A stretch of DNA of 64,000 bases from Dudresnaya verticillata (GCA_977862235.1 OZ374564.1:2666001-2730000); one strand, 5' to 3'. Shown: positions 39,876-63,458, counted from the stretch's first letter. Made by a program: numbers and translations. The notes: generated by a model from the sequence alone, not told the origin.

Positions 39876-40174
39876 AGGCTAAAAGAATCAGGTTAAAGGG
39901 ATAGAAGGTGAGTCGTCAGCAGGTGGAGTCCGGATGGCACCGTAGAAGTACAGTGCCATCCGCCGGAATCCGGGAACGGTTGGAGTACCAGCACGCTATT
40001 CAAAAAGCCATAGTGTGTAAACAAACGAGGGAAGAGACCAAATACCTCGCTAGATGAGATGCTGCAGTATATGGAAAGGTGCGCGAGCAGCGGGATCGAA
40101 CCGAACGGGATACGGTGCGAAAGGGAACCGAATGTATGGGAAAGTGGCCGGTGCGAAGGAGTAGGGAGGGGGAC

Positions 40175-40428
40175 GGATAGAATGGGAAAGAGAACGGATA
40201 GAATGGGAAAGGGGACCGATAGAATGGGAAAGGGGACCGATAGAATGGGAAAGGGGACCGATGGAAAACGAAAGGGGACCGATGGAAAACGAAAGGGGAC
40301 CGATGGAAAAGGAAAGGGGACCGATGGAAAAGGAAAGGGGACCGATGGAAAAGGAAAGGGGACCGATGGAAAACGAAAGGGGACCGATGGAAAAGGAAAG
40401 GGGACCGATGAATGGGAAAGGGGACCAA
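40175..40428 (+). repeat. Purine-rich 21-bp minisatellite, about 12 copies
   Basis: GAAAGGGGACCGAT(A/G)GAA units in tandem. Confidence 0.95.
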
Positions 40429-41066
40429 TACTAAAAGAACCCGGCTCTGGATGGAAGGATGAGTCGTTAGCAGGTAAAGTCCGGATGGCGCCGTATAAAT
40501 ACGGTCCTTCCCGGCGGCTTCCGTTGTAGAACTACAACGGCTTTCACAATGCCAAACGGCTCTGAAGACAGTCAAGATCAGATCCGGCTTTGGATCACGG
40601 ATCGGATCCGTGAGCATTCTGTTCTTCAATCCGGAGCATCGACGCCGTTGGCGTTACAAGGAGAACGGTGCAATGTCCGGAGCTTCGACGCGGTCGGCGT
40701 TACAAGGGGAACGGTGCAATGTCTCGTGAGAAGAAACAGCTTTGGATCTCAGATCTGACGAGAGGAGCCGTTACGGAATACACATCATCAACGCCGACAG
40801 AACCAAAACAGTATTCCCGCCAATAAGGCCAGATGACCGTTCCAATATCTACTCGAAGTGACGCAGTTCCACCGATCACCCGCCCCCTCCCCTCACCCAT
40901 TGCGCACTCCGAGGAAAGTTGAGTGTGGCGTGCGCGATTGCGAACCGGACTACGGCAACGTCTTGCGACGGTCTCCGACAATCCTCTCTCTACAAGAAGC
41001 GCGCTAACACGCAGACTTCTGCAGGCGACAGGCGATTCAGCGTTGCCTCTGAAGGATCCACGAGGG

Positions 41067-41089
41067 CGACGACGACGGCGACGACGACG

Positions 41090-41121
<32 letters not shown>

Positions 41122-41139
41122 AACGACGACGACGACGAC
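41067..41139 (+). repeat. (GAC)n microsatellite
   Basis: Near-perfect GAC run. Confidence 0.95.
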
Positions 41140-41531
41140 CCACCGCGGCGAAGCAATTGAGTTAATTACTTCTCTTCGGTTTCAATTAACGGTATGTAAT
41201 TGCAAATTTCTTTTGGTACCGCTTACACAATTGTTCGGAGTGATTCGAGTGGCGGTGTCAACGGGAACGGCCGTATACGGTCGTTTCCAAGTCGGACAGC
41301 ACCGTAATATTACGGTGCTATCCGATTGACAGTCGCAGTGTGAAGTTACGGTGGCATCCGAATCGGAAGCTTATCGGACAGCAAAAACGAAAGCGACTGT
41401 GAATCGGATAACACCGTAATATTACGGTGCTGTCCGGTTTGCCGTTTAGAAATTATTGTATACTGACTTGAAATTCCCATGTTCCACTTGTTTCAGATCG
41501 AAAGTAGTGCAATTGCGGAGCTCTGCACGGA

Positions 41532-44500
41532 ATGAACGGTCTTAACGGAGGTGATGGGGTCCAGGAGTCGGAGTTGAAGCTCGAGGAATATGGCTTACGT
41601 CTTATTCCGGAGGTCGCGGAGCTTCTGTGCGTCGTATGCCAGCATGCCGTATTCTTCGGTGTGCAAGGACAGGACAATCTCTTCAGGCATTTGCAGAAGT
41701 GTCAGCCGTGGAAACGGGTCACCCGCATCGAATCGAAGGAAGTGTACAAGTCGTGGGATACCGTCAAGAGGGCCTGTGTGCGCACGGCTTCTGAAGAGGA
41801 TTACCATGTGTACATTGGGAGCTCAGTTCGAAGCTCTTCTCGAAGAGCCGTGCGCAGGATTCCATTTTTAAGAGTTATGGAGTGCATTCCTTGCCCTCAA
41901 TGTTCGTTCTTGTCTTTGTCTTCTCCATCGTTGAAGAAACATTATGACGCCGAACATAACTCTTCTGGAAAGTCCATAAGTCTTGCGGAGATCAAGGGCC
42001 TCGGAGGTGTAAAGTGCCAGAAGCTGTTTAAGGGAACTGGCACAGGAAATCCGTTTCTACTAAAGGATGGCGGAGCAGCGGAGTGTACCGGGAATGGAGA
42101 AGCCCGGGCAAGCGGGGAAGGTTCATCTCATGTCCAGCTTCTATTGCACGAATTGAGCGAGGCCAGGAAAGGAAGGATGAAGGTAGAAGAGCCGGAAGAG
42201 AAGGACGTGAGGAGAATGGGTCGTTTTGCAAGTTGCACGAGGCCAGATTTGAAGCTCGAGCAGCTGCATCTCAGCATGGAGGAGGCTTCCAGGTTGAGCG
42301 GAGATGCCTGCCGCGGAGAGAAGGTTTTTGACTAAGATGAAGTCGAGCTGAAGAAGTGGCTGACAGAAGCCGTTCTTTCCGTATTCCAGCATGGCCGTCG
42401 CTGCTCACAGAGGCCCAATATGACGATGTCCAGGGTAATGTTCGCTGTTCGAGCACCTACTGGTGCGACGGGGAGCCAAAAGGTCGAGTTTGCCTGGGTA
42501 GAGAGGCAGTCCGAGAAGAGGTATGCCTCCTTCGTGTCTCGTGGAGCGTTAGCAATTCTACGCATGATTAATGCGTCTCGGGAAGGTGAGGAGCTCATCG
42601 CCAGTGAAGAATTACGCTCTGCCTGTGAGAAGGTGATGGAGGTGTATCGTGAAGAGACTCAGGAAGAACCGGAAGGCGCCGTAAAAATACGGCGCTGTCC
42701 GACGGGACCGTCCGAAAGTATAGTGGCGATGCACGCTTTGCTGAGAGCTTTGTTGTATGAAAGGGTGAGCGTGGATGAAGGCAGCCACTTCTGTGCTGCT
42801 CACGTCCTAACAACCTGTCTTTGTGTGAAGCGTGCGGGAGGGGGGGTTACATTTTCTGAGGGCAGGGATCTGTCTCCATTTCTTGCTGCACTCGCCTATG
42901 CGAGTTCTTGCTGCGCTTTCATCGACATATGTAGCGTTGAGAAGGAGGGTACTTGTGATGAGGAGTTGGCCAGGGTGGAGTTGAGGCATCAAGCCGGCGG
43001 GAGTTTAGGGATACATTTTCTCCAGTCCCTTTGCTTGCAGGCTCGACGGTTTCGGAATGAAGAGTACTCCAGGAACACATGGCTTCCATGTGACGATCCT
43101 GAGCACGTGGGCAAGTGCTGCGGGTACGTGGAGGGGCTTCACATGAGCCCTGATGAAATTGGTATTTGTGTGAAGAAGATGCAAAAGGAGGCGGTGAGCC
43201 TAATGTTCGACCCAACTGGTATTCTCTGCGGGGTAGAACTGCCAAAGGACTTTCAGAAACGCCTCTCGAATATGGTAGACGACACCAGGAAAGAAGACAT
43301 TCCGTATGGATTCATGGAAGATGAGCGGAATGCTGAGATTGTCAGAGAATGCCGCGATCTCGTCGATTCTGCGGTGAGAAAGATGGAATCATTAGACGAA
43401 CGAGCATTCGAGAAACGCGCAAGGGTGATGCTATCGAAACTAAGGAAGTTCCATGTACTCATGGTAGCCTGTTTGCATCTGGCGGGTGGTAATGTCTGTC
43501 GCGGTCCGGAGCTTGGGTTCTTGGCCGTGAGAAATACGGTCAGCGGACCACGTGGGATTCAACTCCCGGGTGGCCCCCGAGTTGCTGTAATTCCAAGTTA
43601 CGACAAGACAAGGAACATGAAGAGGGGGAGAATGCGTGTCATTAGCAAGCATCCTGATGTCGTTACGAGCAACCTGGTCAAATTGGCGATTCTCGTTGGG
43701 ATGGAGTTCAGGCTAGCGTTGTCCCGACTTGTCAGTAACAGGGAGTCAGGGCGTGCGGCCGCGGTCTACGAAGATGGGGCAATGGACTATCTCATGCCAA
43801 CGGCTAGTGCACGATCGGGGTGCCTGCAGCTCGCGGGGAACATGTGGAAGAGTTTTGGTCTGCCTGAAGAATATGGGGCGGAGAAACATCGACAGTGGTT
43901 TGGTGGATATGCGACCGACAAGGCCAATACGGACGAGAAGTTCCGTTACGTCGTGAAGATATTGAATGGTTTCAACAAGGGAGATTCGGATGCTGCTGCG
44001 CTGAATAGTGGAGACCTTGGAAGTGTGATGCAGGTGCAGGGAGCACACTCTGTGCATATCGCGAGAACTCTGTATGGAGCTTGCGCGCCGAACATTGCCG
44101 GTGGCGGTGAGGTAGATGATCGGAACATGAAGCAGTTCAAGCAAGTATCTGACTGCTGGCTCGCAGATTGCGGCTTGGACAAGAACTTTGATTGGAACAA
44201 ACTCCAGGGTGGCGATGAAGAAGGAGAAGGGCGTTCCCGATTGAGTCGGGTTGTGCAGGCGCGAACCGTTTCGGGTGTCAAACGCAGACTCTTCTCTAGC
44301 GGAAGCGGGACAGGAAGCGTGTCGAAACCGGAGAGCGCCGTAATTTTACGGCCGCTTCCGGAAAATTCAGCTGTTCCGAGAGATGCATCAGAGCCGGAGA
44401 GTACCGGAGGATTACGGTGCTGTTCGCCTGTGGATTTTTCAAGGCAAGCCTCCAAACCGGAGAGCGCCGTAGGATTACGGTGCGGTCCGGCCGTGGATGT

Positions 44501-47216
44501 TCCCAGACAAACCTCCGAACCGGATGGCACCGTAGGATTACGGTGCCTTCCGATTCCTAAACATTGTGATTCGGCGGGGCAAGCAAGCGAAGTTGAAGAC
44601 GCCGTAGAAGTATGGCCGCCTCCAGAAACGGGAATTGGAGAGGAAAGAGAGTCGCAGGAGCAAGGAAGGGATGTAGAGAGCGCTGATGGACCCAGTGGTC
44701 CCGGATTGGGAACTGGAGGTGGCGGAAAGGGTGTGAAAAGAGCGATGTCGGGAGACCTGGCTGGAGCCGTACTCCCACGTGCACGCAAGCAGAAGCTTCA
44801 AGGACAGGAGGCGTTGAATGAAGGGGAAGAGAGCAAAGGTGCGGAAAGTGGGAGCGCCGGGGTGTTGGACGGCAATGGGCATGGTCTCCGACTGGATGGG
44901 TGCGATGTTTCTGAGATGAGTCGAGAAGAGATGGCTGATCTATTAAGGAAGTGTTTGGCGACAATCTCGGAATCGGAGCAGAGAAAGAAGGCTTACGAGG
45001 ACGAAAAGCGGCACACCGAGAAGAGGGAAAGCGATAATATTATAGGATTGGGTGATGAACTCATGTCAGATGCAGCACGTCGCCGCTCTGATAAGGATAA
45101 CCGTACAGTCGAAGCTCGCAAAGCAGAGCGTGAGGCTTCAATTGCACGGCGTGTACAGGAATGCCTTGCGCACGCTGTAGGGGACCGTGATGCCGAGTTC
45201 AAAAGCGAAGAACAGAAGCTGGCAATGGAACTTGTATTGCGCAAAGAGAGTGACGCATTAATCGTGCTGAGGACAGGAGGTGGGAAAACCGCCGTTGTTT
45301 TTGGGCCCGCTTCAAGTGAACAAGGAGTGACTATTTTTATATGCCCCCTTCGATCACTACGGGAGGAGATCAAGTTGCGATGTGATGATATCAGGCTGCC
45401 CGTTGTCGATATTGAAGACTTGGACAACAACGAAGTTGAGAAGCGCTTGATGCCGAGAGGTATAATCCTTGCGTCCCCTGAGATCGTGTCCTGTCGAAAG
45501 TATAATTCGGTGCTGAGGAAACTGTACGGAGAAGGGAAGTTGATGCGTGTTGTTGTTGATGAGGCTCACATCGTTGTTCTGAGTGCCCACTATCGCAACT
45601 GTATGTTACGCATGCGGCACGCAAGGCCGGATGGTGTCCAGGTACCGATCATTATGATGACGGCCACTGCACCGCCACATTTGGAGAACCGTATAATAGC
45701 TGGTAACGGAGCCGTGGTCGGGAATACGAAGGTGATTCGTGGCAGCCTCCGTCGGGACAACATAATGTATACCGTGGAGCGGCTTTCGAAAACGACTGAC
45801 GAGGAAGTGGGGCACTGTATTAGACACGCTGTCACCCATGCAGTGAGTGAAGCGTTTATTGTGCGTGGTGGCGGCAAAGTTCTCTTGTGTGTGCTTACGA
45901 AGGGCGAGGCTGATCAAGCTCATGAACTTCTCGAGCGGAGCAGAATGTTCTCGGGAACAGCGCATATTATAATATGTAAGTATCACAGTGGAATGAGTGT
46001 TGAAGCACGGCGGAACAGTGTGGCCGAATGGGGCCGAAACGGGGCAGCACAGCGCTCCGTGTGTGTAATGGTGGCCACGGAAGGATTTGGTACAGGTATC
46101 GATGCCCCCGACGTGGCTCAGACTATAATTGTTGGGAGCAGCCGATCGCTAATGGAGCTGTATCAAGTGGGTGGGCGTGTTGGTCGGGATGGGAAACCAG
46201 GGAGCGTTAGTGTACTGTACCATCATGAGTATGCTGACCGCGCCAACGTGAAGGACACGGAGTCACTGATCGCCTTGAAACGGTTTCAACGGTGGGCCGA
46301 GGACACGAGAAAGTGTCGTGTCAAGGAACTTGAGCAGTATTTGGGATGCCCTGAGGAGCCTTCGGATTGCAGACAACGTGTGTGGGAGAGGACGGAATCT
46401 TACATTCGGTGTTGTGATTACTGCGCTAGGTTTTCTCCGGTAGTGGAAGCAGCGGAATCGCCGAAAAATGACGAATTGGACGAGTCGTCATCTGATGACA
46501 CCGGTTCTTCACAGCAGAGCCCGTCCTTACGTCCAGCAAGGAGTTTGCATGAGGTTGGTGGTGGAATAACCGAGCAAACGGCAAATACAGGGAGACAGAG
46601 ACAGACGGAAGAAACTGTGCAGTGCACCCCGGAGGATAGCGCGGTGGCTGCAGTTCGCACGGCGAGTGGAGCAGGCGAAGCAGTTGAAGAACTGCGGGAT
46701 CTTGCCGTCAAGCTGGCTGGTGTGTGCCCGCCTTGCTTTGGTCGTACGAGGCCCGGTGACAAGGTGTCAATCCGTGCCTGCCGGAACAGCCAGCATTCGA
46801 GGAGCTGCTATTTTCGGCAGTGTATACGGTGCATGTCCGGGGGGCACGATGCAGCCCAGTGCACTGTACGGCCTTGGAAGGCACGCGGCGGTGTGTTCAG
46901 CGCTGGTTGTTCGGAGTGCTCGATTCGAACGTTTGGTTCGAAGAAGCTCCATGTAGGGAGCGGCAGTCCGAGGCGAGGACAGAACGAGTATGGGTCGTCG
47001 GAACGTTGCCCGTTCTTCAGACCCGTACAGCTAGCGATGGCTTTTTGGAGCCACGAGGAGAGGCGCACGGAAATGCTTGCGCATCGTGGGATGCGACGTT
47101 TCAGGAGATGCTCAAGTTTGAAGGCTTTCTGTGAGGAGCTTGTGTTGGACAAGCCTGGGTGGTGCCCAGGAATTCTTGAGTTCTCTCGGTATGCTGTGGA
47201 AGTGTTTGATTTGTAG
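41532..47216 (+). pseudogene. OrsD/DUF3505-like Zn domain + tyrosine-recombinase-like domain + RecQ-type SF2 helicase + Cys/His knuckle fusion; single in-frame stop at 42333
   Basis: ORFs 41532-42335 and 42420-47216 are in the same frame with only one TAA between them. N-terminus: LLCVVCQHAV..RHL and CPQC..KKHYDAEH. YR-like: CRGPEL (R at 43500), YDKT (K at 43605), EKHRQ (R at 43890), QGAHS..ARTLY (H at 44046, Y at 44073). Helicase: LRTGGGKT, VVVDEAH, MTATAPP, YHSGM, VATEGFGTGID, QVGGRVGRDG, CR..CCDYC. C-terminus: CIRCMSGGHDAAQC. The helicase call is firm; the YR call is moderate. Confidence 0.85.
44328..44625. repeat. Cluster B: five in-frame copies of the 34-bp palindrome inside the CDS
   Basis: Starts at 44328, 44394, 44457, 44520 and 44592 (spacing 66/63/63/72). 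Translated as PESAVILRP, PESTGGLRC, PESAVGLRC, PDGTVGLRC and VEDAVEVWP. Confidence 0.9.
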
Positions 47217-47491
47217 TGCATGCGATGTGGAGATTGGTACGGAATGGAAGTATAGTTGAGTTCAGAATAAATCAGGAAACAACATCGCAGTAATGCAGGT
47301 CAAGGCGTGGGAGAAATTTACTGCTAGTGAAAGGGACGTGAATATCGTGTAGAGAAGCGGACTGTGTGCGAGAATATGTCAGTAATATGCGCAACGCAAT
47401 CGCTCGAGAATTATCGTTGAATGCGTGTGTTAGCGGGGAGAGAGTCGGAAGCTTACCTGAATGTATTTTTGTAGATGAAGATCGGGCTAGT

Positions 47492-47985
47492 CCGGAAGCC
47501 ACCGTAAATTTACGAGGGTTGCTGGTTGCCATGTCTCCACGTCCTCGAGATTAGCGTACGGGTGAACCGGAAGCCCTTGTAAACTTAAGATGACTTCCGT
47601 TGTATCTTGAACTATTGTAGAAGCGTCTTGAAGTGAAGTAGAGCCTAGGAGGGTGCAGTGCGTAGAGCGGGGGCGGCGTTGGAGCGGATAGCACCGTATA
47701 ATTACGGTTCTATTCGGTTTAAACGTGTAGAGCTGGAGCGGCGTTGGAGCGGATAGCACCGTATAATTACGGTGCTATCCGGTGGAGGAGTGTAGAGTAT
47801 GTAGAGCTAGGGCGGTGTTGGATCGGATAGCACCGTATAATTACGGTGCTATCCGGTTGAAGAGTGTAGAGTATGTAGAGTTGGGAACGCGTTGGAGCGG
47901 AGAGGACCGTATAATTACAGTGCTCTATGGTTTGAGGGTGTAGAGTATGTGGAGCTGGGACGGCATTCGACTGGAGAGCACCGTA
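47492..47985. repeat. Cluster C: palindrome array downstream of the helicase gene (65-74-bp units)
   Basis: Degenerate copies at 47492 and 47567; clear copies at 47684, 47749, 47823 and 47897 (spacer TATAATTA); left half-site at 47971. Confidence 0.93.
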
Positions 47986-48773: not shown

Positions 48774-49757
48774 ATGTATGTGCCTGCAAACTGGCTAAGA
48801 GCGTTTGGGAGTGGCAAGGAACTGCTCGAAATTGGCCTGGATCAGTCGGGAGACGGGTTTATCACGCGCTTTCGGCATAGCGTGCGAAGGAGGCTTGTTA
48901 CGGACCGTATGGCGATACCAGGACAATCAAGGTATGCTGTGCTGTTCTCAGGGGGTATCGATTGAATGGTCATTGCGCGAGTGCTTGATGAATGCTTGAC
49001 TCCCGGGGAGGGTATTACGTTGATCAATGTTGCTTTGGGCGCCGACTCGCAGGCTGTGGCGCAGTGTCCCGATCGACTAAGCGCAATTTCGGGATGCGAA
49101 GAGCTGCGTAAGCTGTCCGAGACGGACAGAGTCTTCGACTTATGCTGCGTGGACGTCGCCCCGGAACAGGTGGATGAGACGCTTGAAAAGCAGGTACGTT
49201 TGCTTGTGCACCCGTGCGACCAGGCCATGGACGCGTCGATAGGCACCGCGATCTGGCTCACAGCGCGTGCGGATGGGAGTTCACATAGCGGGCTGCAGGG
49301 AACAGCGAAGGAGGCACGAATTTTGTTCAGCGGGCTCGGCGCGGACGAGCTAATGGGCGGGTACAAGGGCCGACACCGGACGATATACCGGACGGAGGGC
49401 GTGAACGGTGTGCTGCGAGAGATGGACGCTGATTTGAGCAGACCGTGGTTTCGGAACCTAGGTAGGGACGACCGGCTTGTCGCAGACCATGGCAAGGAGG
49501 TCCGTCATCCGTTTCTGGATGAGGACCTCATCGAGTTTGTAACTGGCCTCCCTTTGGAGCGGCACGTTTGTGACCTCTCAAGACCAGATGGAATTGGCGA
49601 TAAGCACCTGCTCAGGCGCGCCGCAATAGTTCTTGGTTTGTCGGCTGAGACGGCAAGCGGTTCGAAGCGAGTGGGTCACGGAGCAAGCAGGTCATTGAGC
49701 GCAAAGGTTCTTGTTGAACATTTGGAGGCAGTTTTTGGCTTAAGCCAAAGTCTCTAA
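48774..49757 (+). pseudogene. Asparagine synthetase domain-containing (ASNSD1-like) C-terminal fragment
   Basis: AVLFSGGID*MVIA with an in-frame TGA at 48963, LFSGLGADELMGGY, RNLGRDDR and RHPFLDE. No N-terminal glutaminase domain is visible. Confidence 0.82.
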
Positions 49758-50108
49758 AGTGCGCCAATGAGTCCCATTGCCCGTCAACCGACGAAGACTA
49801 CGAAACAGGCGGCTCAACACGCATTAACGCGAACTTGTCCGCCACCCGGCTGGCTCACATCCGCATAGAGTGCTTGTCATAGCCTAGACACTAGTACCCC
49901 AGACTCGCAGCAAGTGAGAGGAAGCATTGACGAATTCGATTGCGGCGAACGTTGCGCGTGGTACCGTTGAAGGTTGCTATTCGATCCAAATACTCGTCAG
50001 ATTGGGCTTCACTGCCCAACCGCACAACATATCGCGCCATTAAGCTGGTATTGAAAAAACCGTATTGATCAAGCTGTAAATGTTGGAAAGGAGCTGTCAC
50101 AGACGCTG

Positions 50109-51324
50109 ATGGAGTGTAAGAACACATTGAGAGTTACGCTGCTTCCACTGTCGACAATCGATACTACAGCTCAGGGAAAAATTCGCTCTCTGGATACAAT
50201 CACTCTGAAGGAAAGGTCAGCGACGTTAAGTTCGCTAGAGCAGGCCGCGCTGGACATCGAACAGATCCTCCAACTCAACATCTTGAAAATGTTTCCGATA
50301 TTGAAGAGGCAATATCAACGCTTTTACAAAGCAGTAGATTCCAGAGCACTTGTGTTCCGCGACACAGTGCGCAGCCTGCTTCCCCAGGTGAGGGACGGAA
50401 ACACAGATCAGGCCGAAGTCATGCGCGATCTTGAAAAACCCATCTGCGTTGCAAAACACCAGGCAGAAGTAGCTCAGGACTTTATTGAGGCGAAGCAACA
50501 GGACTGCCGAGTTCTCGATGTGACTACTGCGAATCTCTTCAAGCATGGCTTCGAAGACTACCGCGATTCAGTAGATAATCTTGCTTCCGTCGTATCAGAG
50601 AATAGCAAACCGCGTCTATTGCTTTCTTTCGCTGGGATTAAGGCGACACACAGATTTGAGAATCAACTCCCCCCGTGCTTCTCATGCTTCTGGAGAGAGC
50701 ATATCGAGCTCTGAGACGTCGCCTGAAGGGGACCACTCGGCCAGTGACATTGATGACGAAGATGAGGAGTGGTTTGAGGACAAGGCGAGTTTGGAGTATT
50801 TGGGAAGATCCTGTGAGGTTTTGCGAAAGCTGAGGCATAACAATCGTCTAGCTGAGTTCGAGGCCTTATATGGAGTGACGACTGCTGGTCGAGCATTCCG
50901 CGCTGACGGCCGTAAAATGAAGAGGACTCGTATCGGAGATATTGTCCTAGAGGCAAACGGACGACGACAAATTGTCACTCCTGTTATGGTTGGACCTCCG
51001 AATCTTTCATGCACCGTTAACAAGCAGACTGTCAAAGTCGCATGGCATCCTACTGATAGCGAAGTTCTTCCTGCAACGGCGTTTCTAATCTCCTATCAAC
51101 CTACACGGAATGCCGCTCTCGACGAATTTGATCAAGCCGTCGCAGCCAATGAGCCAGTCGAGTACTTGGTGCAGCCTGATGGGGACAGCGTCCTTGCTTC
51201 TGCGTCACAGATGCTGTGCATCTGGAAGGCGTCTTTGACAACGCACGCCACTTTGTTGATCACGCGCTGGGAGCATCAGAAGATCCTGCAACATGCCAGT
51301 GCAGACCGGTTTGGCGTGCAGTAG
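50109..51324 (+). pseudogene. Unidentified, probably frameshifted coding remnant
   Basis: Two overlapping ORFs (201 and 247 aa) with protein-like composition (helical part, acidic SDIDDEDEEW). No motif recognised. Confidence 0.35.
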
Positions 51325-51644
51325 CGTGATGTCCTGAATGTGTCGAAAGAGCTCGTCAGTTGTGTATCCAAAAGCATGTCTCCGTGTGTGTAATGTGACG
51401 TGGTCGACCCGGAACTGGCGCTGTCGACCAAGGAGAGCAAGTCGGCTGCGCTGCTGTTTTACTTGGGTGTTGTGCTGCGCCCGACCAGCGACGCTAGCCA
51501 GAAATTGACCGAACGGGATTTGGTTCGTGTGTCGTCCATCTTCGCGGTGGAGATGGGAATGGTAGCCGTGCTAATGAAACCCACCGAGGCAATTGAACGA
51601 ATGAGGGTTGATGACGCAGAACGCTAGCTGGGGGGCGTCGAGCG

Positions 51645-51980
51645 CAGAAGCACGCGGCTCGCCATCGCGGCAAGGTCAAGTCTTTTCCGAGGGATGACCC
51701 CAAGAATCCGTGCCACCTCACCGCCTTCATGGTCTACAAGGCCGGTACGACCCAAATCGTCCGCGATGTTAACAGGCCAGGTTCCAAGCTGCACAAGAAG
51801 GATGTTGTCGAGGCCGTGACTGTCACTGAAACTCCACCAGTCGTGGCCATCGGCGTTGTGGGGCTCACTGAAACCCCATACGAACTGCGCTCGATGACGA
51901 CCGTTTGAGCCGAGCATCTCTCTGAGGAGGTCAAACGTCGTTTCTACAAGAGCTGGTATCGCAGCAAGAAGAAGACATTT
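51645..51980 (+). pseudogene. RPL3: 60S ribosomal protein L3 N-terminal fragment
   Basis: Manual translation: [60 protein letters not shown]...TTV*AEHLSEEVKRRFYKSWYRSKKKTF. Stop at 51906; start and C-terminal two-thirds are missing. Confidence 0.93.
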
Positions 51981-52299
51981 CTGCATCTTGCTTTTCTACT
52001 TTCGCTGTGAATATTTTGGCAATATTCCTGGGAAGGCGCTGCCATGCCGTCAGCGACTCCGCAGCAGGCCCAAACGGAGTGTTAGTTCGGAGCCGGGCTT
52101 CCTCTGGCCGAACAACGCGATCGAATATGGGTGTACCAGTATCCTGCAGTCGATATCCTCATCATGCTTAGAAGGAAGGCCCAGACTCTGTCTAGGATTG
52201 CACTTGGGAGGCCGCGGTCATTTGACTTCTTCCCACGGATCGTCGGGAAGCGAGGCCCGGATTGTCCTGGACAGTTGGCATGCCCGGGCTCCACTCTGC

Positions 52300-52680
52300 A
52301 TCGGACTGGCGACCGATAGCTTCTGCATGCGTATCAGAATGCTTGCAGCTTGCGGATCGAATCCGTGCTCATCCGCAGTTGCGCTCTTCAACGACCTGTC
52401 AGACCGCCTCTGTTCGGTCTTGGATGCCGCAGAGCTGTGTCGCAATGTCCACCCGAACCTGGGGTTTGTCCGGGACGCAGATGACACATTTCTGCAAGTC
52501 TCTTCAGTTCTGCAGGAGCTCAACGCGGACTAAACCCTGTATGATCCCCTAGATCGACTGTATGACGATCACCTACGCCATCTTCGCAACGCCGCCGATC
52601 GTGCGAGATTCGTATCTGATGAGGACGTGTTTATGGCGAGATTTCTCAAGCACGAGTTTGAACGTGGCGGTATAGCTCTT
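52300..52680 (+). pseudogene. Mitochondrial intermediate peptidase-like (peptidase M3) N-terminal fragment
   Basis: FNDLSDRLCSVLDAAELCRNVHP...LQELNAD*TLY...FLKHEFERGGIAL resembles the MIP/Oct1 N-terminal helices. In-frame stop at 52531. Confidence 0.7.
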
Positions 52681-52697
52681 GGGCGTCGTGACCCGCG

Positions 52698-52935
52698 ACC
52701 TGGCACGTTTACTCAATGGAGTGGACTCCGCACAGAATTGCCTTCTTTCATGACGGTAGGCAGATTGCCGATGCATATGACAAACCGCGCAACCCCACGA
52801 AACGCAACTGGCCATTTGATGGGGAAACCCCTTTCTACCTCATTATCAACAACGCCATACACCCGAGCTGGGGAACTGAGCCTCAAAACCTTGAATCGCA
52901 TGTACTGGAAGTTGATTATATTCATTTCAGAGAGT
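52698..52935 (+). pseudogene. GH16 glycoside hydrolase C-terminal fragment
   Basis: WHVYSMEWTPHRIAFFHDG...WPFDGETPFYLIINNA...LEVDYI. The catalytic ExDxxE region is absent. Confidence 0.8.
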
Positions 52936-55004
52936 ATCCGATGCAGCAATGGTGCGCTCTCCTGCTTGTGTACCTGCCACGGCACTGGTTTGGTCCAGTC
53001 TGTCAGTTTGGTCTATCTGTGTCCAGTACTGCACTGTAGTACGCAAGACCGGCCGACTGCCGTCACAAGAGAAAAGTGTGCCCTTATTCAAACCATTGAA
53101 CCACATCGGACGTTTTACTGTTTCAGTCCACTACCCTCTCACGGTCAGCAAGGGCTGAGCAGACCGGCAAATAAGATGGTGAAGGGCGCCGAGCGAACAA
53201 ACGAAGCGCGAAACTTGTCGAAGAAGAAGCAGCTCTGCAGCAGCTACAAGAAGTGCGGCGCACTGTAGTAAGAAAAGAGCGTACGTCTGTTCTGGGAACA
53301 GAAGTCCAACACGAGATATCGAGACATTGGGATATGGTTGTCACACACGAACGAGTTGTAAATGGCACTCTATTACACAGCACTGTCGTCGAGCACTACT
53401 TGCACATGGTATGCGCAGTGTTGAGTGCGTGAGAGCGACGAGAACGCTACTTGTATATGCATGAGGATAAAAGATGTCGGAGGCGAGGCTATATCGACAA
53501 CAATGCACTGACGCTAACATGGAGTACTAATCTAAGCGGACTGCATGGTGGAGATGGAGATTGCAGAGCAGACGTGGTGGCTTAGTGGATGAGGAAGCGG
53601 CAGAAAGCCAACTCGAGAACGACTTAGTTCTGGCTGCTTCATGCAAGCAGCTTAGGATGCGCTGGAACATGCTGTTCCGAACTATCTACAAACTTCATCG
53701 AACAATCTTGGCATCACCAGCGGTGACGATTCGATACACAGCATGGGGGCTCGGGACCAGGTAGCAGATGAGGTGCTTTGGATGACGGAGCTAGAAGGGC
53801 TCGTGAATGGCTGGTGCCGCAACTATAGGAGTCGGTTCGGATTATAGCGTGTGCTCCAGGGCTTGGAGGAGCTTGTTCCACTCTTTTGTTTCTAGCATGA
53901 TGCTCAGGCGCCGGTTGGAGTACAATGCAGTGGTGCTGCAGCTATTTGAGCCGTCTTGGAACCTCTATTCGCCCCTGAAGCACCACAAGCCCGGAGTCAA
54001 GAGCATCAATAGGAGGGCACTGTGCAATAGAAAGGTGGTATCGCGGACTGCCTGGGGCTTTCACAGTCTCTCTGTGGCTGCGTCGGTTCCCCCGTGTCGA
54101 CTCGAACTGACAAACAGTATCGCAGCCAGAATACAATGGTAGTCAGCTCTGACCCCGTAATAACGGGCTATTCTGGCAGTTGTTCTCGCAAAGGATGGAA
54201 AGGGAGGCTTGCTACGTTCCTTCTATCCGCACAGTAGTAGCAGAAACTTGCTTGAAAGGTGACTCTGCGTATGTGCGGCCTGCGATGTGAGGATCTGTGA
54301 TGATCTTGTCGTCAGTCTGCAGTTCTGACAAAACCAGCAATGGCTGCTCGTGTAACATATCCGCCACAACTACGCAAAATTGGCCATTGATCAATCGTGC
54401 ATAAGTTCCTCTTCATTCATGGTTGCAGCACGTCCAATGTTAATTGAAAAGCCGTGCGAGTGAGCTTCTGGAAGACACGACTGTGCGGTACGATTGCAAA
54501 ACCTGATATCAACGGTAACACGTTTACAAGTGTGTTCACGCTGCTCAAAAACGAAACTCGTCGAGCTGCGACTCAGCGAACATTCGGACGCCTTAGGACT
54601 TAGCCTTGTTTCAACTCTTAGCGAATACAACATATTATATTGCCAGAGCCACGGCATCCTAGAGGGACAAGTCTAGAGGTACCCCTAAAAGGCTGCAACT
54701 AGAGTTCGAAGCATTTAGATGGTGCTGAGGGGCATAGCTGAAAAGCCGCAGTCGCTCTTGTTGAGAACTCGATGGGGAGTCTCCGTTTACTCGTAGGTAT
54801 TTCTGATATGGCGTGCGGTACTGGGAACTGTTATCTACCGTGCTGTATTTATCTTGACAGCCAATGTGTCTCACTCACGCTCACGCATCGACTTTTGTGT
54901 CTGCACATGTCAACCAATTTTGAGGTTGCATGTTACGTTGGCGTTGCAACCCGACTGAGCAGTTCCGCCCCCCATTGGTTGCGCCCTGGGTGATCATGAC
55001 CGGC

Positions 55005-56052: not shown

Positions 56053-56468
56053 CCGGATAGCACCGTAATATTACGGTGCTCTCCGACGCGAGGCCCTAAC
56101 CGCCGCAACCGAATCCGCGAACGGCTCACCGCCGTGCGCGTCAAGAACCGGATAGCACCGTAATCCTACGGCGCCATCTGGCGAGCGGTTCACCGCCGCG
56201 CGCGTCAAGAACCGGATAGCACCGTAATCCTACGGCGCCATCCGGCGAGCGGTTCACCGCCGCGCGTGTCAAGAACCGGACAGCACCGTAATCCTACGGC
56301 GCCATCCGGCGAACGGCTCACCGCCGCGCCCATCAAGAACCGGATAGCACCGTAATCTTACGGAGCCATCCGGCACAAGCCACTAACCGCCGCAGCGGTA
56401 TCCGCGAACGCCTCATCGCCGCGCGCGTCAAGAACCGGATAGCGTCGTAGTCTTACGGTGCTCTCCGG
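56053..56468. repeat. Cluster D: palindrome array (64-bp core units) immediately upstream of the orphan ORF
   Basis: Copies start at 56053, 56148, 56212, 56276, 56340 and 56435; spacers TAATATTA, TAATCCTA, TAATCTTA and TAGTCTTA. Confidence 0.95.
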
Positions 56469-56485
56469 CTCCAGTCTCGACAAGG

Positions 56486-59400
56486 ATGGCCAATAGTCCG
56501 AGGAGAGGGCGAGGAGGGAAGAATCGAGGGAAGCTGCCATCTGTCCGTGGTAGGCGGCCACGAGGAGTAACCGCCGTGCCTCCTGCAGCCGACCCAAATG
56601 ATACTCCTCCGGCAGGCGAAGCTGACCCAACTGTTACTCCTCCGGCAGGGGACCCAACTGTTGACAGCAGCTCTAAAGCAAGGTCGAAGGCGACACCACC
56701 GAAGGAGGTTTCTGAGGGGGTAGCAGGTGACGCCCCCCCATCTGTACGGAAGCCTTCTTCAAATTTGAAGAAAGCATCCGAAACCGCGATTGGCCCACGA
56801 CTACGGAGCGAGACAACTGCAACGGCCCCTCCGCAGTCTTGCAGCCAGGATGATTCATCTCTGACGCCTGCAGTAGCGGGTAAGAGCACAGGGACGCCCA
56901 AGAAGAATTCTGGGGAGCCGGGAACGAAGGCGTCCTCGGGTGGAGGGGCCGAGAAACGAGGTGGTGATCCCACATCGAAACCTCCCCAAAAAGCGGGTAA
57001 GGTCAAGACCGCACTCCCAAGAAACGTGGGAAAAGGCGATGAAGGCAGAAGTCCGCCTGTATCGCGCAAACCAGTACCGCGCAAACCAGCAACCCGCGAT
57101 TTTGTGGAGAAGGGGTCGTCAGAAGTCGGCAAATCCGATGGAGCTGTGCACCCCTCACCGCCGCCGAAAGGGACCCCAAGGGCTCCGCCCGGGCCGCCAG
57201 AAGCGGCTCCGAGTGCGCCGCCAAAAGCGGCCCCGAGTGCGGCCCCGAGTGCGCCGCCAAAAGCCGTCCCGAGTGCCCCAGCTGCTGCTACAGCTGCGAA
57301 ATCCTCTCAATCAGGTCAAGGGGTGCGACCGGCATCGGGCGAAGAGTCACCAGCGATTGCAAAAGCTGCGGGGAAACATCCAAAGCCCGCCGCCCCAACC
57401 CAACCAACGCGGCGGAATAGGGCATCCGATGGAAACCTCCCTAGCACGGGAAGTGCAACTACCGGTAAGACGAGAAACAGCCGAGCCCCTTCTGGACTGC
57501 GCAGTCAAGCTGCGCACAGTGACGCAGGCAAAATGCCGGTATCAAGTAAGGGTCCTCCAACCAGTGCTGGCGAACCAGTGTACTACAACGGGAAATTTAC
57601 CGAATCGGTCACCGGCGTTGGAGAGGCTTCTGCGACGGGCACCACAATGTCGATGAAGTCTAAAATGCCCCAGCCTGCAATCGTTCTCGAGTATTGGGAC
57701 AGTTGGAGGATGGTGAACCGGCCTGGTTCAGATCTTACACAGTTATTCAAGCAGCCAATTGGACATGCTCTATACCCGAATAATGGAGATGGGCAGAAGT
57801 GGCCCGTCGCAATACCACTGTCAAACATTCGGATAGCAACGGCGAACAATATTCGTGAAGTGCAAGAATCGTTTCTAAGTGGCGGGGATGGAGAGGCAAG
57901 GTGGCATGAGGGTTTAGGCGCTGCAACCCTGATGACGACCGCAGCTGCGCTTGGAATTCAAGTCCCTGACGAGTATCTTGAGAGGATACAAATTGCTGAG
58001 AAGTCCGCTCCAGGGAACCCGGCTACAGGACCAATTCACCTCTATCGTTACAAGAAGAGGTACCGGCCCCCCCTTCCAGACGCTTGGAAGCTTCCGCCAT
58101 TTGGCGATGCATATGTCCCGCCCGATGCCCGCATTGGAATCGAGGATGGTAACGTGAGACTGTCCGCTGCCGCGATCACGGGCGTTGAAAAAGTTCGAGC
58201 GCACGTTTCTGTTTTTGTTATCCCTCAACAGCAGCTTGAGGGGATGACCGGTGATCCGTGTGATATCGCTGCTGCTGGGAACTGGCTGGAAGGGATGATG
58301 ACCACAGTTGCAAACAGGCTTAACGAGGCAACTGCCAGTATTGGTACGACCACTCCTGTTCAGATGGCCCTGTCGTGTGCCCGACTGCGTACAGGTACCG
58401 CCCGGCAGCTCCCGTCTCGTGTATGGATGCCACAGTCGGATAGGATCGGTTCGAAGAACAAGACCCTAAGCGAGGTCAGGGCAAAACTCAGGGAGGCTCT
58501 CGACGATATAATCGTCATCTCTGATGAAGAAGATTGTGCAGAACACTCCGATGAAGACAAGCAGGCCAGTCAAGAGAGAAACGACACAGAAGGAGCTGAT
58601 ACGGCCCCGGTGGGCCCGGAAGCGGCCGCCGTAAATTTACCAGGCACTCGGTCCCATGGCGCCTCTACCCTCGTCCTGCCTATTCCAGGCGAGGATGAAG
58701 CTATGTCATACATAGGTACCATCCGAGAAGCTTCGAAGCAAAGGAACAGCGAGGCACCTCCCCCTGCCCGTACTGAAGCTGGTTGCCAGGATCCCGCGGG
58801 CATCAAACCGCGGGAAAAGAAGAACTATGAGATAGCCCCTTGGTCTGGCGTGATCCTGTCGACAAACACACCGGGATATGAGGAGAGTCAGCCGCGGGTA
58901 CCGAATGCAAGCGAGTATCTGGCCGGGGCTTTTGTAGCAGGTGAACGCCACGGTATAGTTGCGCGTTCTGTGATTGGAGATTTGAAACCCGCAGAGAAGC
59001 GCAAGAGGAATGAAATGCGGAAGAAGCGGTCGGGTGAGAATGGTCTTTCCGCGGAACAGTCTGAGGCTATGAAACGCCTTCGAGTTCAGACGCATGGCGA
59101 GGAAGGAAGCCGAGCAGTCCCTGTGGAGGACCTAGAAGAACATCAGAAAGCCGCTGTGGAAGAGGCGAAGGAAAAGAAGACCAGTGACAGACAGTCGTTC
59201 TTGGAGATGGCCAAGGAGAACTCTGATTTCTTGTTCGTGTGCGGCGGTGTTGAGATAGTCGAGAACAAGATTCAGCATCGCTGTATGGCGTGTTGGCTAG
59301 ACTATCAGTTGATTCGGCATGATAAGGCATGCACGTGGGCCCTGGAAGTGCTGGATGCACGTGATTCTCCGGTGGAGCTTGGTGGTGTCAAGCGGCCTTT

Positions 59401-61153
59401 CGTGCTTCCGTACGAGGGCGGGAGGTACCGTTGGATGAAGACGGAGATCAACAAGGCGTGCGACATGTTGTTCACCCCGCTCCACCATGCTTCCGGTCGT
59501 CGCCTGCTCGGTGAGGGCACAGCTCGCAGGTACAAGAATGACGATGTCGCCCTGTACAACATCATGGAGGGCGAAAGGCGTCTGGTTCGCAGTGAAGTCA
59601 CAGGCGTAGCGATGGTGACGGCAGTCCAGCGCCTCGATGCCTACAACGAAGCGACGGAGACGGGGAAGGCGGCCATTGGAGGATATCGACGGGCAAAGCC
59701 GTCGACAAATCCAGAGAAGTGTCTGGAGGAGCCGCAGTCCGAACACTACTACTACCAGGAGTCAAAGTTCTCGGCCCAGACCGCCTTATTAGCAGAGGCT
59801 GCAAAACTTGGGGCGAGGGCGGCAGTTGCAGCGACACGGCTTTGCTGTGGGCTTCTCGGTCTTCGTTCAGTGAACTGCATACTCCTGGCCGGGGAATGCG
59901 AGAGTAGGTTACCCCGACGGACGTCGGAGGCATATGAGTGGTTTGCTATTAACGTTTGGCATCGTCGCCCCCAGACGAGACATATGTTGCATAGGCGGGT
60001 GAGAAGTGGGACTGGAAGTACGACTGGAGCTGGGTGTGTACTAAGAATCGTGAACAAGGAGCAGATGGCCTGGGGGATGCACAGTCTCGATAATCACATG
60101 TGTGCCATTGTGGTGATGGCTCTGCCTGGGCTTCAGAAGGTCCTTCGCGATCTGGTATTTACGGACAAGTATGATGTGGACTTGTGGGCTGGCACGAAGC
60201 AGAGTGGGATGCGTGTTAAGGACCCTGTCGACCGGGCCCGAATGGGTGGAAGCCGCTTTGACTATGATGTCTTTCGTGTTCTGGAGAAAGCAGCTGGTCG
60301 ATACAAGTGGTTGGAGGACGCCTGGCATGATTTGGAGATTCCCTCGCGTATTGCCCGTGTGCTGTACGCTATTCAGACTCGCGACCCGTGCGTTGGGGAC
60401 TTGATGTCCCAATGCATCATTCTCTCGCAGAGACCTGATGATGAAGCCCACCAATCGAAGGTGGTGATGCTTGAATTTGTCAACCAGGACGAGTTTAAGA
60501 AAGACCGCGACATAAACGTGAGGCTGACTGACAGGCTTCCGGAAAGAAGATCTCTGGGGCCAGGAGGTGGGGCATCTGGAGAGGTGATGTCGAATCTTTC
60601 CGGGGGCGGCGGGAGTCGAAGGGGTAGTAAAGGACGTAGGGATAGCAGTAGTAGCGCTGGTCGCGGTGGTGGAGGCGTGGGTGGTGGAGGCGGAAGTGGT
60701 GGTGGGCGTAAGAGAAACGTTTCTTGGCGCCGCGCGCCGCACAACACCGTCGGAAGCATAACTGTTGGCAGAGCTACTGAGGCGCTGCGTGTGGCAGATG
60801 CTGAAGAGCGGCAGAAGAATTTTACTATGGTTCTTGCTAGTGCTTTCGACTTGTGTAGAACGCACCCGGAACTGATTGACAATCACGATCTGGACAAGCG
60901 TGCCGAATTACTTGAAGGGATTCTGAATCAACCAGTAGATGGACTGCCGGACATCAAGAAGGAGTTGCCGGAACCTGAAGAGTTTATGGACGAGGTTCAA
61001 ATTGTGCATGAGCATGTTATGACTCAAGTGCAGTCTGCCAGTCAGTCTGCCACTCAAGCCGAGTCCCGGAAGGAAGGGCGAAAGCAAGCAGAAGATCATG
61101 CAAGGGGTGGTATCGATAGTGATGAGGAGTCTTCAGAGAATGAATCCACGTAG
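56486..61153 (+). CDS. Large hypothetical protein (1555 aa), no recognised domain
   Basis: Uninterrupted 4.67-kb ORF. Pro/Ala/Lys-rich low-complexity N-terminus, globular-looking middle with RCMACW, Gly-rich patch and acidic tail. Confidence 0.85.
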   Translation: MANSPRRGRGGKNRGKLPSVRGRRPRGVTAVPPAADPNDTPPAGEADPTVTPPAGDPTVDSSSKARSKATPPKEVSEGVAGDAPPSVRKPSSNLKKASETAIGPRLRSETTATAPPQSCSQDDSSLTPAVAGKSTGTPKKNSGEPGTKASSGGGAEKRGGDPTSKPPQKAGKVKTALPRNVGKGDEGRSPPVSRKPVPRKPATRDFVEKGSSEVGKSDGAVHPSPPPKGTPRAPPGPPEAAPSAPPKAAPSAAPSAPPKAVPSAPAAATAAKSSQSGQGVRPASGEESPAIAKAAGKHPKPAAPTQPTRRNRASDGNLPSTGSATTGKTRNSRAPSGLRSQAAHSDAGKMPVSSKGPPTSAGEPVYYNGKFTESVTGVGEASATGTTMSMKSKMPQPAIVLEYWDSWRMVNRPGSDLTQLFKQPIGHALYPNNGDGQKWPVAIPLSNIRIATANNIREVQESFLSGGDGEARWHEGLGAATLMTTAAALGIQVPDEYLERIQIAEKSAPGNPATGPIHLYRYKKRYRPPLPDAWKLPPFGDAYVPPDARIGIEDGNVRLSAAAITGVEKVRAHVSVFVIPQQQLEGMTGDPCDIAAAGNWLEGMMTTVANRLNEATASIGTTTPVQMALSCARLRTGTARQLPSRVWMPQSDRIGSKNKTLSEVRAKLREALDDIIVISDEEDCAEHSDEDKQASQERNDTEGADTAPVGPEAAAVNLPGTRSHGASTLVLPIPGEDEAMSYIGTIREASKQRNSEAPPPARTEAGCQDPAGIKPREKKNYEIAPWSGVILSTNTPGYEESQPRVPNASEYLAGAFVAGERHGIVARSVIGDLKPAEKRKRNEMRKKRSGENGLSAEQSEAMKRLRVQTHGEEGSRAVPVEDLEEHQKAAVEEAKEKKTSDRQSFLEMAKENSDFLFVCGGVEIVENKIQHRCMACWLDYQLIRHDKACTWALEVLDARDSPVELGGVKRPFVLPYEGGRYRWMKTEINKACDMLFTPLHHASGRRLLGEGTARRYKNDDVALYNIMEGERRLVRSEVTGVAMVTAVQRLDAYNEATETGKAAIGGYRRAKPSTNPEKCLEEPQSEHYYYQESKFSAQTALLAEAAKLGARAAVAATRLCCGLLGLRSVNCILLAGECESRLPRRTSEAYEWFAINVWHRRPQTRHMLHRRVRSGTGSTTGAGCVLRIVNKEQMAWGMHSLDNHMCAIVVMALPGLQKVLRDLVFTDKYDVDLWAGTKQSGMRVKDPVDRARMGGSRFDYDVFRVLEKAAGRYKWLEDAWHDLEIPSRIARVLYAIQTRDPCVGDLMSQCIILSQRPDDEAHQSKVVMLEFVNQDEFKKDRDINVRLTDRLPERRSLGPGGGASGEVMSNLSGGGGSRRGSKGRRDSSSSAGRGGGGVGGGGGSGGGRKRNVSWRRAPHNTVGSITVGRATEALRVADAEERQKNFTMVLASAFDLCRTHPELIDNHDLDKRAELLEGILNQPVDGLPDIKKELPEPEEFMDEVQIVHEHVMTQVQSASQSATQAESRKEGRKQAEDHARGGIDSDEESSENEST

Positions 61154-61684
61154 GTTGCAACGCTTCGGGCGCCTCCTGCAGTGAACCTGCTAACCAGTAA
61201 AGTTCAAACGTGTACATTCTATCAGCTGATGCGCCTAGTGAGAGGGAGAGTTACGAACGGTCTGTAGACATGTTGGTATCCGACAGACAAGGACAATACA
61301 TTTACTAATATTGGATCTCGGAAAGGACCGATATAGCTGGGCGGAGACGTATGGGGAATTGTAGCAAAGTGACATGGTTAGCGATTGGACTTGCGTCTCA
61401 GCCTGGACCTCGGAGGCGGAGGCGGCAGGACATGCTTTGCGCGGTCAATAGCAAGGAATCTTTGTTCGAGTCTCTGGAATGCTTCTTCTCTGGATAATTT
61501 GGGTTTGTTTGGCTGCTCTTGCCGAGTTCTGGCTGGTCGAGGTGCGGTTTCCTTTCGGGCAGGTGTGTTTTGCGTTCTTGCACGACGGGAAGTCTTGGAG
61601 ATACGACCTCGAGAATGACGGCGGTGGGACTTCACAGGTGGTTTCCTTGGAATGGAGGAGCGAAATCTTCGCCGCGAGTCCTGT

Positions 61685-62430
61685 GTGAAATCAAAATCGG
61701 AGCTAGAGTCAGTGTCTACGTCAGCCGGACCGGGGGCAACACTTCGAGGCATTCTTGAGGGGGTAGGTATGAAAGGACTGGATGTGTGGATGGCGGTGTC
61801 GCGGTGAGAGAACTGTAGGGGGAAGCAAACCTATGAATAGCAATTCAGAGCCGAGCAGTTGATGAAACAGCAGTACATCTTGAAATTGAAAATTTGTAAT
61901 CGGGGTAATGAAGCACTCTTAATAAATCACCAATCTCCGGAGAGCTCGTACGTACCATCGATGTTTAATCGATTCAGTCGACAATGGAGGTTGTCTATTC
62001 GAAAGCACTGTAATCAAGCGACACATTTACGTCATTTACGTCTACGTCTTCATTTGCGGAAACGAACGCAGGTAATTGTCCCGGTGTTGGATACTAGGGA
62101 AGAGGTTAGAGGTTAGGGGATTGGAGGGCCGTATCAATGGGGTAATAAGTGGACGCAGGACTTCTGCGTGAAGTCAAAATCAGAGTCGGAGTCCTATTTA
62201 CAAGTTCGCAGAGCCGCGCGCAACTCATCGAAGAATTCTTGATGGAGTGAGCTAAGTTTCGACTGGAAGTGATGTGTGTGTTGCAGGCCCGACCCAGCGA
62301 GGCACCGCCTGATGAAACAACGGTGCATTTCGAAATTCAAAAATTTGTAATCAGAGCAATGAAGCACTCTTCAGTAATTGCACTCGTCAGTAATCGCCAT
62401 TTCCGGGTTTCTACAGAACGTACCGTCAAT
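61685..62430. repeat. Diverged direct duplication (offset about 450-480 bp)
   Basis: GTGAA.TCAAAATC.GAG...GAGTC at 61686/62168; GATGAAACA...GAAATT.AAAATTTGTAATC...AATGAAGCACTCTT at 61861/62311. Confidence 0.75.
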
Positions 62431-62562
62431 TTAGTCGAGATTGTAGTCTGTCTCCTTGCAAGCCCTCTTTCAAACACAGCGAGACGACATCTCCCTCTGC
62501 AGAATTGAGGGAGTCCACATCTCCCTTTGCAGAATTGAACGCAGTTCGCTATCCCGCTTTGA

Positions 62563-63458
62563 CCGGAAAGGACCGTAACCTTACGGTGCCATCCGGTTGT
62601 GCATGTTTAACAAGCTATCACCGGATAGGACCGTAATCTTACGGTGCCATCCGTTTATGCATACTTAGCAAGCCATGACCGGATAGGACCGTAATCTTAC
62701 GGTGCCATCCGGTTGTGCATACCTAGTATCCGATGACCGGATAGGACCGTAACCTTACGGTGCCATCCGTTTATGCATACTTAGCAAACCATGACCGGAT
62801 AGGACCGTAACCTTACGGTGCTATCCGGTTGTGGATGCTTAAGAAGCTATCATCGGATAGGACCGTAATCTTACGGTGCCCTCCGCTTGGGCATACTTAG
62901 CAGGCTATCACCAGATAGGACTGTAGTAGTACGGTGCCATCCGTTTATGCATACTTAGCAAGCTATGACCGGTTAGGACCGAAATATTACGATGCTATCC
63001 GGTTGTGCATACTTAGACCGCTATGAGCGAATAGGACCGTAATATGACAGTGCCATCCTGTTGCCTAGCAATCTCTGACTGGATAGGACCGTAATCCTAC
63101 AGTGCCATCCGGTTGTGCACACTTAGCAAGCTATGCCCGGATAGGACCGTAATATGACAGTGCCATCCGTTTGTGCGCACTTAGCAAACTATGCCCGGAT
63201 AGGGCCGTAATATGACAGTGCCATCCGGTTGCGCATACCTAGCAAGCTCTGACTGGATAGGACCGTAACCGGATAGGACCGTAATATGACAGTGGCATCC
63301 GGTTGCGCATGCCTAGCAAGTTCTGACTGGATAGGACGGTAATCCTAAAGTACCATCCGGTTGTGCATACCTAGCAAGCTATGACCGGATAGGAACGTAA
63401 CCTTACGGTGCCATCCGGTTGTGCATGCTTAACAAGCTATCACCGGATAGGACCGTAA
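62563..63458. repeat. Cluster E: 58-bp tandem array = 34-bp palindrome + 24-bp linker
   Basis: 15 full copies (62563, 62621, 62679, 62737, 62795, 62853, 62911, 62969, 63027, 63079, 63137, 63195, 63269, 63327, 63385) and left half-sites at 63253 and 63443. Linker consensus TTGTGCATACTTAGCAAGCTATGA. Confidence 0.97.

Follow-up and report, generated by a model that had tools for sequence, protein, structure and literature searches.

Candidate palindromic sites of a predicted tyrosine recombinase fused to a RecQ-type helicase in Dudresnaya verticillata

Two large genes and five palindrome clusters

We analyzed 64,000 nucleotides of DNA from Dudresnaya verticillata (GCA_977862235.1 OZ374564.1:2666001-2730000; hereafter the window, with positions counted from its first letter). 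The window holds two large open reading frames (ORFs), ORF1 and ORF2, and five clusters, A to E, of a 34-bp palindrome (Table 1). ORF1 is, by its architecture, a gene of the telomere-linked helicase (TLH) type, and it is homologous to the telomere-abutting genes with which it was compared. Its middle region is a predicted complete tyrosine recombinase with core-binding and catalytic domains, and a RecQ-type helicase follows it. The palindromes are candidate sites of this recombinase.

An original prediction, made from the DNA alone, counted more than 30 palindrome copies in five clusters and saw none in the first 39 kb, and both statements held. A scan with a position weight matrix (PWM) at a threshold of 8 bits found 36 sites, including extra ones at 42669 and 47567, and the top shuffled score was 6.7 (20 shuffles). 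The originally proposed consensus with up to 3 mismatches gave 44 strand matches at 22 distinct positions (24 including single-strand matches; chance 0.00 against 100 shuffles), and a looser scan with up to 9 mismatches across both arms gave 35 sites. The whole set lies inside 39930-63418; the consensus, loose, and PWM scans of the window found no copy before 39.9 kb, all sites being at 39930 or beyond. The consensus, CCGGATAGCACCGTA-NNNN-TACGGTGCTATCCGG, is a perfect palindrome and agrees with the loxP/FRT pattern of inverted arms around 6 to 8 bp. The symmetric portion is really 15-4-15, and the 13-8-13 geometry first proposed is one way to read the same site.

Almost no variation occurs at arm positions 2-5 and 13-15, the TA..TA bordering the center is intact in 30/36 sites, and the central four bases vary across the 36 copies, as originally noted. 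Pairing between the arms is kept in 14/36 copies at position 7 and in 16/36 at position 9, and such fixed positions together with unpaired ones fit a site that is read by a protein. Tandem arrays (periods 58, 63, 64, and 65-74 bp) account for most of the copies, so that independent origins number about 6 to 10 rather than 36. Between arrays, the sites are 75% identical, versus 25-26% in the 20-bp flanks on either side (483 pairs); because flank identity is random, the common unit is the 34-bp site and not a longer repeat. The clusters bracket both large genes, as originally described, but five sites also lie within ORF1 and interrupt it, every one in the sole stop-free frame. An origin of the sites as a coding repeat was considered and rejected, since 30/36 are non-coding. 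On the right, clusters C and E each stop at a half-site (47971 and 63443), a left arm with TA or TAA, beyond which lies non-site DNA. A degenerate site pattern, which matches 14/36 of the window sites, had no match in the metagenome, viral, and prokaryote collections, and Rfam had none in the window from 36 to 64 kb.

The predicted recombinase of ORF1

Pfam identified DEAD and Helicase_C domains of RecQ type in ORF1 with intact motifs, and the helicase is present in 51/53 relatives of 1150 aa or more; the original prediction had also named a RecQ helicase. The OrsD match was weak and below the Pfam cut-off (E 0.0008). Of the two candidate N-terminal C2H2 motifs, the second fits the published pattern, and the first reads C2HC and contains a gap of 16 residues. 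ORF1 contains one in-frame TAA (42333-42335), which is likely to be a nonsense mutation because the surrounding stretch is colinear with intact relatives, and this copy is probably dead. An intron spanning the stop was rejected, as the relatives align colinearly through it.

A search with ORF1 residues 1-640 (counted after the stop) returned 116 relatives. Word-based protein searches gave no match for the same residues, Pfam and NCBIfam gave none for the recombinase region, and PDB sequence searches yielded nothing significant. Among the 72 relatives spanning the region, R389 is kept in 71, K424 in 72, R519 in 69, H571 in 71, and Y580 in 71, with all five together in 68. The recombinase domain is missing from all five viral relatives and from 4/6 relatives in the prokaryote collection.

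An AlphaFold model of the recombinase region was built from 48 sequences and had a predicted local distance difference test (pLDDT) score of 84. When it was compared with 48,161 chains in a wide structural search, 19 of the top 20 matches were tyrosine recombinases or topoisomerase IB, and rank 13 was a recombinase-fold phage protein. As the original reading of a tyrosine-recombinase fold would have it, the predicted model matches XerA (Z 9.6, root-mean-square deviation (rmsd) 15.7, 250 residues aligned), IntI (Z 9.5, rmsd 4.0, 264 aligned), XerH (Z 8.8, rmsd 4.8, 287 aligned), and Cre (Z 8.3, rmsd 4.7, 264 aligned; Z 9.5, 4.5, and 271 in a repeat comparison), and these alignments span both the core-binding and the catalytic domains; for Cre, XerA, and IntI, Z ranges over 8-9.7. 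Model residue 580 aligns, judged by the ends of the alignment ranges, at lambda integrase 342 and variola topoisomerase 274, which we take to be catalytic tyrosines, and at TelA 406. The published nucleophile of TelA is Tyr405. Separately, the uncharacterized Feldmannia species virus protein B5LWN9 was the sole viral structure match at E<=0.001 (TM 0.33).

Sites and neighboring genes of distant relatives

We surveyed 80 metagenome loci, 40 of which carry the recombinase domain and form 23 sequence clusters. In a blind screen, repeated palindromes turned up at L013, L031, and L068/69/71 and at none of the 40 other loci. L031, whose recombinase is 24% identical to that of the window, has seven copies of GGGCTGTA-N4-TACAGCCC, three before and four after the gene and in both orientations (chance 0.00). 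L071 (19% identity) has three GGGAGCTGTAGGCCTACAGCTCCC-type copies 3' of its gene, and the L061/L051 lineage, found after the core had been fixed, has two AGTAGCGCTACTAA copies downstream (0/200 shuffles reached two). A GTA-N4-TAC core is common to the window, L031, L071, and L061. The recombinase-positive loci contained 21 matches to it in 377 kb, versus 1 in 423 kb of controls, and other spacer lengths gave 0-1. What is new here, at the level of sequence, is this candidate cognate site with a core common to distant relatives. The L031 20-mer had no match in viral contigs.

Other palindromes accompany other relatives. L013 has five copies of GGGTCT-N3-AGACCC and L086 has six GAATCGCATGCGATTC-like copies, both of other sequence, and a weaker, generic test for palindrome families was positive in 6/23 recombinase clusters versus 1/20 controls, some being by-products of longer repeats. 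L086 also bears degenerate GGGGATTA repeats together with a palindrome array 5' of its gene. The recombinase-helicase genes of L086 (1-8486) and P0041 are intact and come from bacterial metagenome bins; they are probably mis-binned eukaryotic DNA.

The perfect palindrome of the consensus, the predicted folding of the sites as hairpins, the telomere link of the family, and the self-complementary centers at the L071 and L061 sites would all suit a protelomerase-like resolvase, which would cut the palindrome and seal hairpin ends, giving linear replicons or new chromosome ends to be unwound by the helicase. We give this explanation little credence, because only 9/36 window centers are self-complementary and those of L031 are not, and because protelomerases were among the low-ranking matches of the structural search (Z 4.7-4.9). 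TelA, moreover, needs a specific symmetric six-base center (PMC3558466, PMC12270096). TelA, TelK, and ResT share with the window a catalytic fold, palindromic targets, and a link to chromosome ends, whereas the window differs in its mostly asymmetric and variable centers and its lower structural scores.

Three relatives, L013, L020, and L030, adjoin TTAGGG tracts and match the recombinase-domain profile, with R, K, R, H, and Y all retained. The window could accordingly be an ordinary subtelomeric TLH region, in which the arrays would be helicase-associated satellites spread passively by slippage and ectopic exchange and the helicase would serve the host. Both large genes face the right end of the window, with broken gene fragments between them, and published work already describes palindromes within repeats next to a fungal TLH gene: the TLH genes of M. 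oryzae are flanked by repeat arrays, one of which, HAR-D, has a conserved 23-bp imperfect palindrome (PMC1635262). This explanation nevertheless appears improbable, since passive spread should carry flanks, yet flank identity is random, and since it leaves unexplained the conserved recombinase active site and a core common to proteins of 19-24% identity. No telomere tract was found within the 64-kb window, which extends only 540 bp beyond the last array. In L013 (1-7813), the telomere tract is on the 5' side and the TLH-type gene faces away from the telomere, unlike in L020 and L030.

ORF2 appears, weakly, to resemble a ParB-like protein. Word-based protein, Pfam, NCBIfam, and PDB sequence searches found no homologues of ORF2, its C-terminal part had no Atlas match, and a single-sequence model was unusable (pLDDT 30). 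Its first ordered domain (57656-58459), chosen by eye as ParB-like, gave 30 Atlas matches, all 30 to ParB-superfamily clusters (0.91-0.93), at a recognition value of 2214, under the tool's mark of 2300; BLAST, hidden Markov model, and hhalign comparisons with ParB-like proteins gave no support. The placement of ORF2 parallels that in L071, where the recombinase-helicase gene and its sites are followed by a large gene that starts with low-complexity sequence and carries the ParB-like motif IDGAHRL. The palindromes might then be uncut sites for the ORF2 protein or the ORF1 zinc fingers, serving as parS-like loading, regulatory, or partition sites, with the recombinase acting at the ends of the element. 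The uniform Atlas matches, the L071 gene directly after three sites, and the window's site clusters, which adjoin start codons and have largely incompatible spacers, all agree with this. We nonetheless judge it unlikely, because the Atlas value and the profile tests do not establish the link between ORF2 and ParB, because the DNA examined around the sites of L031 and L061 showed no ParB-like gene, and because invariant TA steps, a free center, and half-site ends suit a cutting site better.

Proposed mechanism, known systems, and map of the region

We consider it reasonably probable that the 36 palindromes are the sites of the predicted recombinase in a helicase-assisted mobile unit, and the unit is likely to be a mobile element that copies itself and belongs to a kind without a known description. 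The sites, their conservation, the predicted fold, and the co-occurrence in relatives speak for this, and from them we infer binding, cutting, a role for the helicase, and mobility. Mechanistically, a pair of recombinase subunits would occupy both arms and introduce nicks at the TA steps flanking the free central four bases, leaving a 3'-phosphotyrosine. Reciprocal exchange between spacer-matched sites would excise a module (ORF2, 6.3-7.2 kb; ORF1 with the gene fragments, 14.7 kb). At spacer-mismatched sites, the fused helicase, which is of 3'-5' polarity and would be held at the 3' end of the nick, would peel the nicked strand away. This single strand would become joined to another partner, and replication by the host would finish the event. 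Tandem arrays, scattered single sites, and arrays ending in half-sites would be the outcome, and ORF2 would be a probable partner gene using the same sites.

Several results weigh against this interpretation. Cre-type exchange requires matching spacers. The 8-bp spacer is the same in only 21/483 between-array pairs and 27/147 within-array pairs; nine of the former are direct pairs around ORF2, 6.3-7.2 kb apart, two are direct pairs around ORF1 and the gene fragments (14.7 kb), and 10 are inverted. Simple Cre/loxP behavior is therefore doubtful. The mobile-element recombinase originally proposed is partly supported, by the predicted complete recombinase and by similar palindromes beside homologues in unrelated DNA. 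Half-sites end 2/10 array ends, which has a chance of about 0.09 by hand estimate, and ACC microhomology explains the half-site junction at 63253 equally well. In the domain itself, R, K, R, H, and Y of the originally described R...K...(H)R...H...Y set are conserved, but the first His of H-x-x-R is not, being Glu in ORF1 and Ser, Arg, or Asn in relatives. Model residues 573-592, including the catalytic tyrosine, have pLDDT <50, Foldseek against the PDB gave no match at E<=0.001, and Z <10 is middling for a helical model.

The evidence from relatives is likewise qualified. The count of 21 versus 1 is not independent, because the core was defined after L031 and L071 had been seen, and it includes 10 matches from near-identical loci and three simple-repeat matches. 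The association of sites with ORF1 homologues, which the original prediction suggested as a check, was found in three lineages but not in most loci: among 16 representative loci, several with short flanks, GTA-N4-TAC with paired arms occurs at least twice in three, once in two, and not at all in 11. L086 has no GTA-N4-TAC site; L031, L061, and L071 group together in a single clade, and the window's gene is not its sister; and the closest relatives, P0001-P0040, fall outside the DNA survey.

Arrays of palindromes can also act as replication origins or enhancers, as the hr repeats of baculoviruses do, and several dispersed imperfect-palindrome arrays beside a helicase gene recall that arrangement. 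Such a role for the helicase is, in our estimate, very improbable. No viral or replication genes were found in the region, neither the site pattern nor the L031 20-mer matched a viral contig, and the five viral relatives are without the recombinase domain. It is also established chemistry that a nick with a 3'-phosphotyrosine leaves no 3'-OH primer.

With the palindromes taken as recombinase sites, the window can be set beside known systems. Cre/loxP, Flp/FRT, and XerCD/dif share with it a core-binding and catalytic fold (predicted here) and a site of 34 bp whose arms are inverted and whose center is often asymmetric; the window differs in its fused helicase and zinc fingers, its dozens of sites, their varying center, and the absent first catalytic His. 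The integron integrase and the Tn1549/Tn916 integrases, which tolerate spacer mismatch, ranked high in structural similarity to the ORF1 domain but are bacterial, have no helicase fusion, and use another site structure. Our literature search found no report tying TLH, or Crypton, Starship, or RecQ, to this recombinase; subscription journals, Repbase, supplements, and the 2009 paper that reportedly defined the TLH domain lay outside its scope. The Starship marker DUF3435 had no match at E<=1 in ORF1 or in 43 aligned members of its family, and the Crypton marker DUF3504 had no Pfam match in ORF1 or the aligned members. Cryptons and Starships are eukaryotic DNA elements with a tyrosine recombinase, and Starships carry cargo or accessory genes, but both end in short direct repeats, and the available text of a 2026 overview mentions neither a RecQ fusion nor palindrome arrays for them (PMC13465315). 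The same text lists DIRS, Ngaro, VIPER, Crypton, and Starship as eukaryotic tyrosine-recombinase elements, with RecQ or helicases unmentioned.

TLH genes, whose architecture we take from 10.1101/2024.02.27.582403, resemble ORF1 in their RecQ helicase and flanking repeat arrays and apparently also in their N-terminal zinc fingers/OrsD and conserved middle region. The ORF1 region is unlike them in having no telomere tract in the window, one palindrome in all arrays and inside the gene, and a second large gene. In the published TLH accounts compared, the TLH domain is given no role as a recombinase, and the function of TLH genes is called undetermined in a 2024 preprint (10.1101/2024.02.27.582403). 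A recombinase domain and a sharply defined short candidate site make this two-decade question testable. A broader reading, which as a whole we regard as possible but rather doubtful, is that TLH-type genes might be the transposases of eukaryotic DNA elements that form an unrecognized, widespread class, and that a single protein would nick a loxP-like palindrome and unwind from the nick. Strand transfer would then proceed without spacer identity, each lineage would have its own arrays of cognate sites, the GTA-N4-TAC core would persist across proteins about 20% identical, and the stretches traveling between arrays would include a ParB-like partner gene as well as fragments of host genes. If so, the window would provide the first enzyme-site pair for the TLH family. 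A recombinase-helicase class, if real, would add to the few known kinds of tyrosine-recombinase element in eukaryotes, and natural eukaryotic recombinase-site pairs with differing arm sequences would be possible tools for genome engineering.

The window gives no support for the single element of at least 23 kb originally proposed: no common terminal repeats or target duplication were found around either module. The gene fragments at 48800-53040 may be cargo or neighboring debris.

Table 1 Features of the palindrome-bearing region (window coordinates)
Feature	Position	Strand	Details
Cluster A, 5' of ORF1	39930..41437		full sites 39930, 40481, 41292, 41404
Cluster A right half-site	41347-41361		
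Cluster A duplication	39757-40010		copied at 40310-40554
ORF1, TLH-type gene	41532..47216	+	OrsD/zinc finger, predicted tyrosine recombinase, RecQ helicase, Cys-rich tail
Predicted tyrosine-recombinase region	42336..44225	+	core-binding and catalytic domain
Catalytic codons	R 43500, K 43605, R 43890, H 44046, Y 44073		
Lone in-frame site within ORF1	42669..42702		in a loop absent from 81-94% of relatives
Cluster B	44328..44553		linker between recombinase and helicase; four in-frame sites, period 63-66
RecQ-type helicase	45213..46193	+	GGGKT 45276, DEAH 45558, QVGGRVGRDG 46164
Cluster C, 3' of ORF1	47492..47985		six sites, one at 47567
Cluster C terminal left half-site plus TA	47971-47985		then non-site DNA
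Broken gene fragments between modules	48800..53040	+	asparagine-synthase domain, stonustoxin-helical-domain fragment, ribosomal protein L3, weak GH16
CCGGAT/GATCC repeats ahead of cluster D	55998-56050		
Cluster D	56053..56468		six sites, period 64/95; ends 17 bp 5' of ORF2 start codon
ORF2, 1555 aa, open	56486..61153	+	low-complexity N-terminus
Weakly ParB/Srx-like ORF2 domain	about 57650-58460	+	
Cluster E	62563..63458		15 full sites, period 58; internal half-site 63253
Cluster E terminal left half-site plus TAA	63443-63458		then non-site DNA

Repeats of other kinds adjoin the clusters. A MITE-like inverted repeat (37924-39071; 403 bp, 93% identity, 340-bp center) adjoins the first cluster on its left, a purine-rich 21-bp tandem repeat (40169-40430) lies within cluster A, and an old 400-bp direct duplication with 60% identity (61676-62556) stands ahead of cluster E. 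The window also contains a second, broken element (2507-12600). Its ORF at 2507-3685 corresponds to the N-terminal part of proteins combining a ParB-like domain with an N6/N4-methyltransferase (8 relatives), 7861-8553 matches the C-terminus of such proteins, and 9458-10882 encodes DUF7869; at metagenome locus L064 (1-1674), an N6/N4-methyltransferase frame akin to this family lies 5' of a recombinase-helicase gene. The segment 12203-12415 is similar to 39309-39568, and 12468-12520 is similar to the GATCC repeats at 55998-56047. Between 22249 and 36713, the window carries ordinary long intron-poor genes, namely E2F/DP-like, HMGL-like, ABC transporter, and protein kinase genes, and 28799-29719 is racemase-like by eye.

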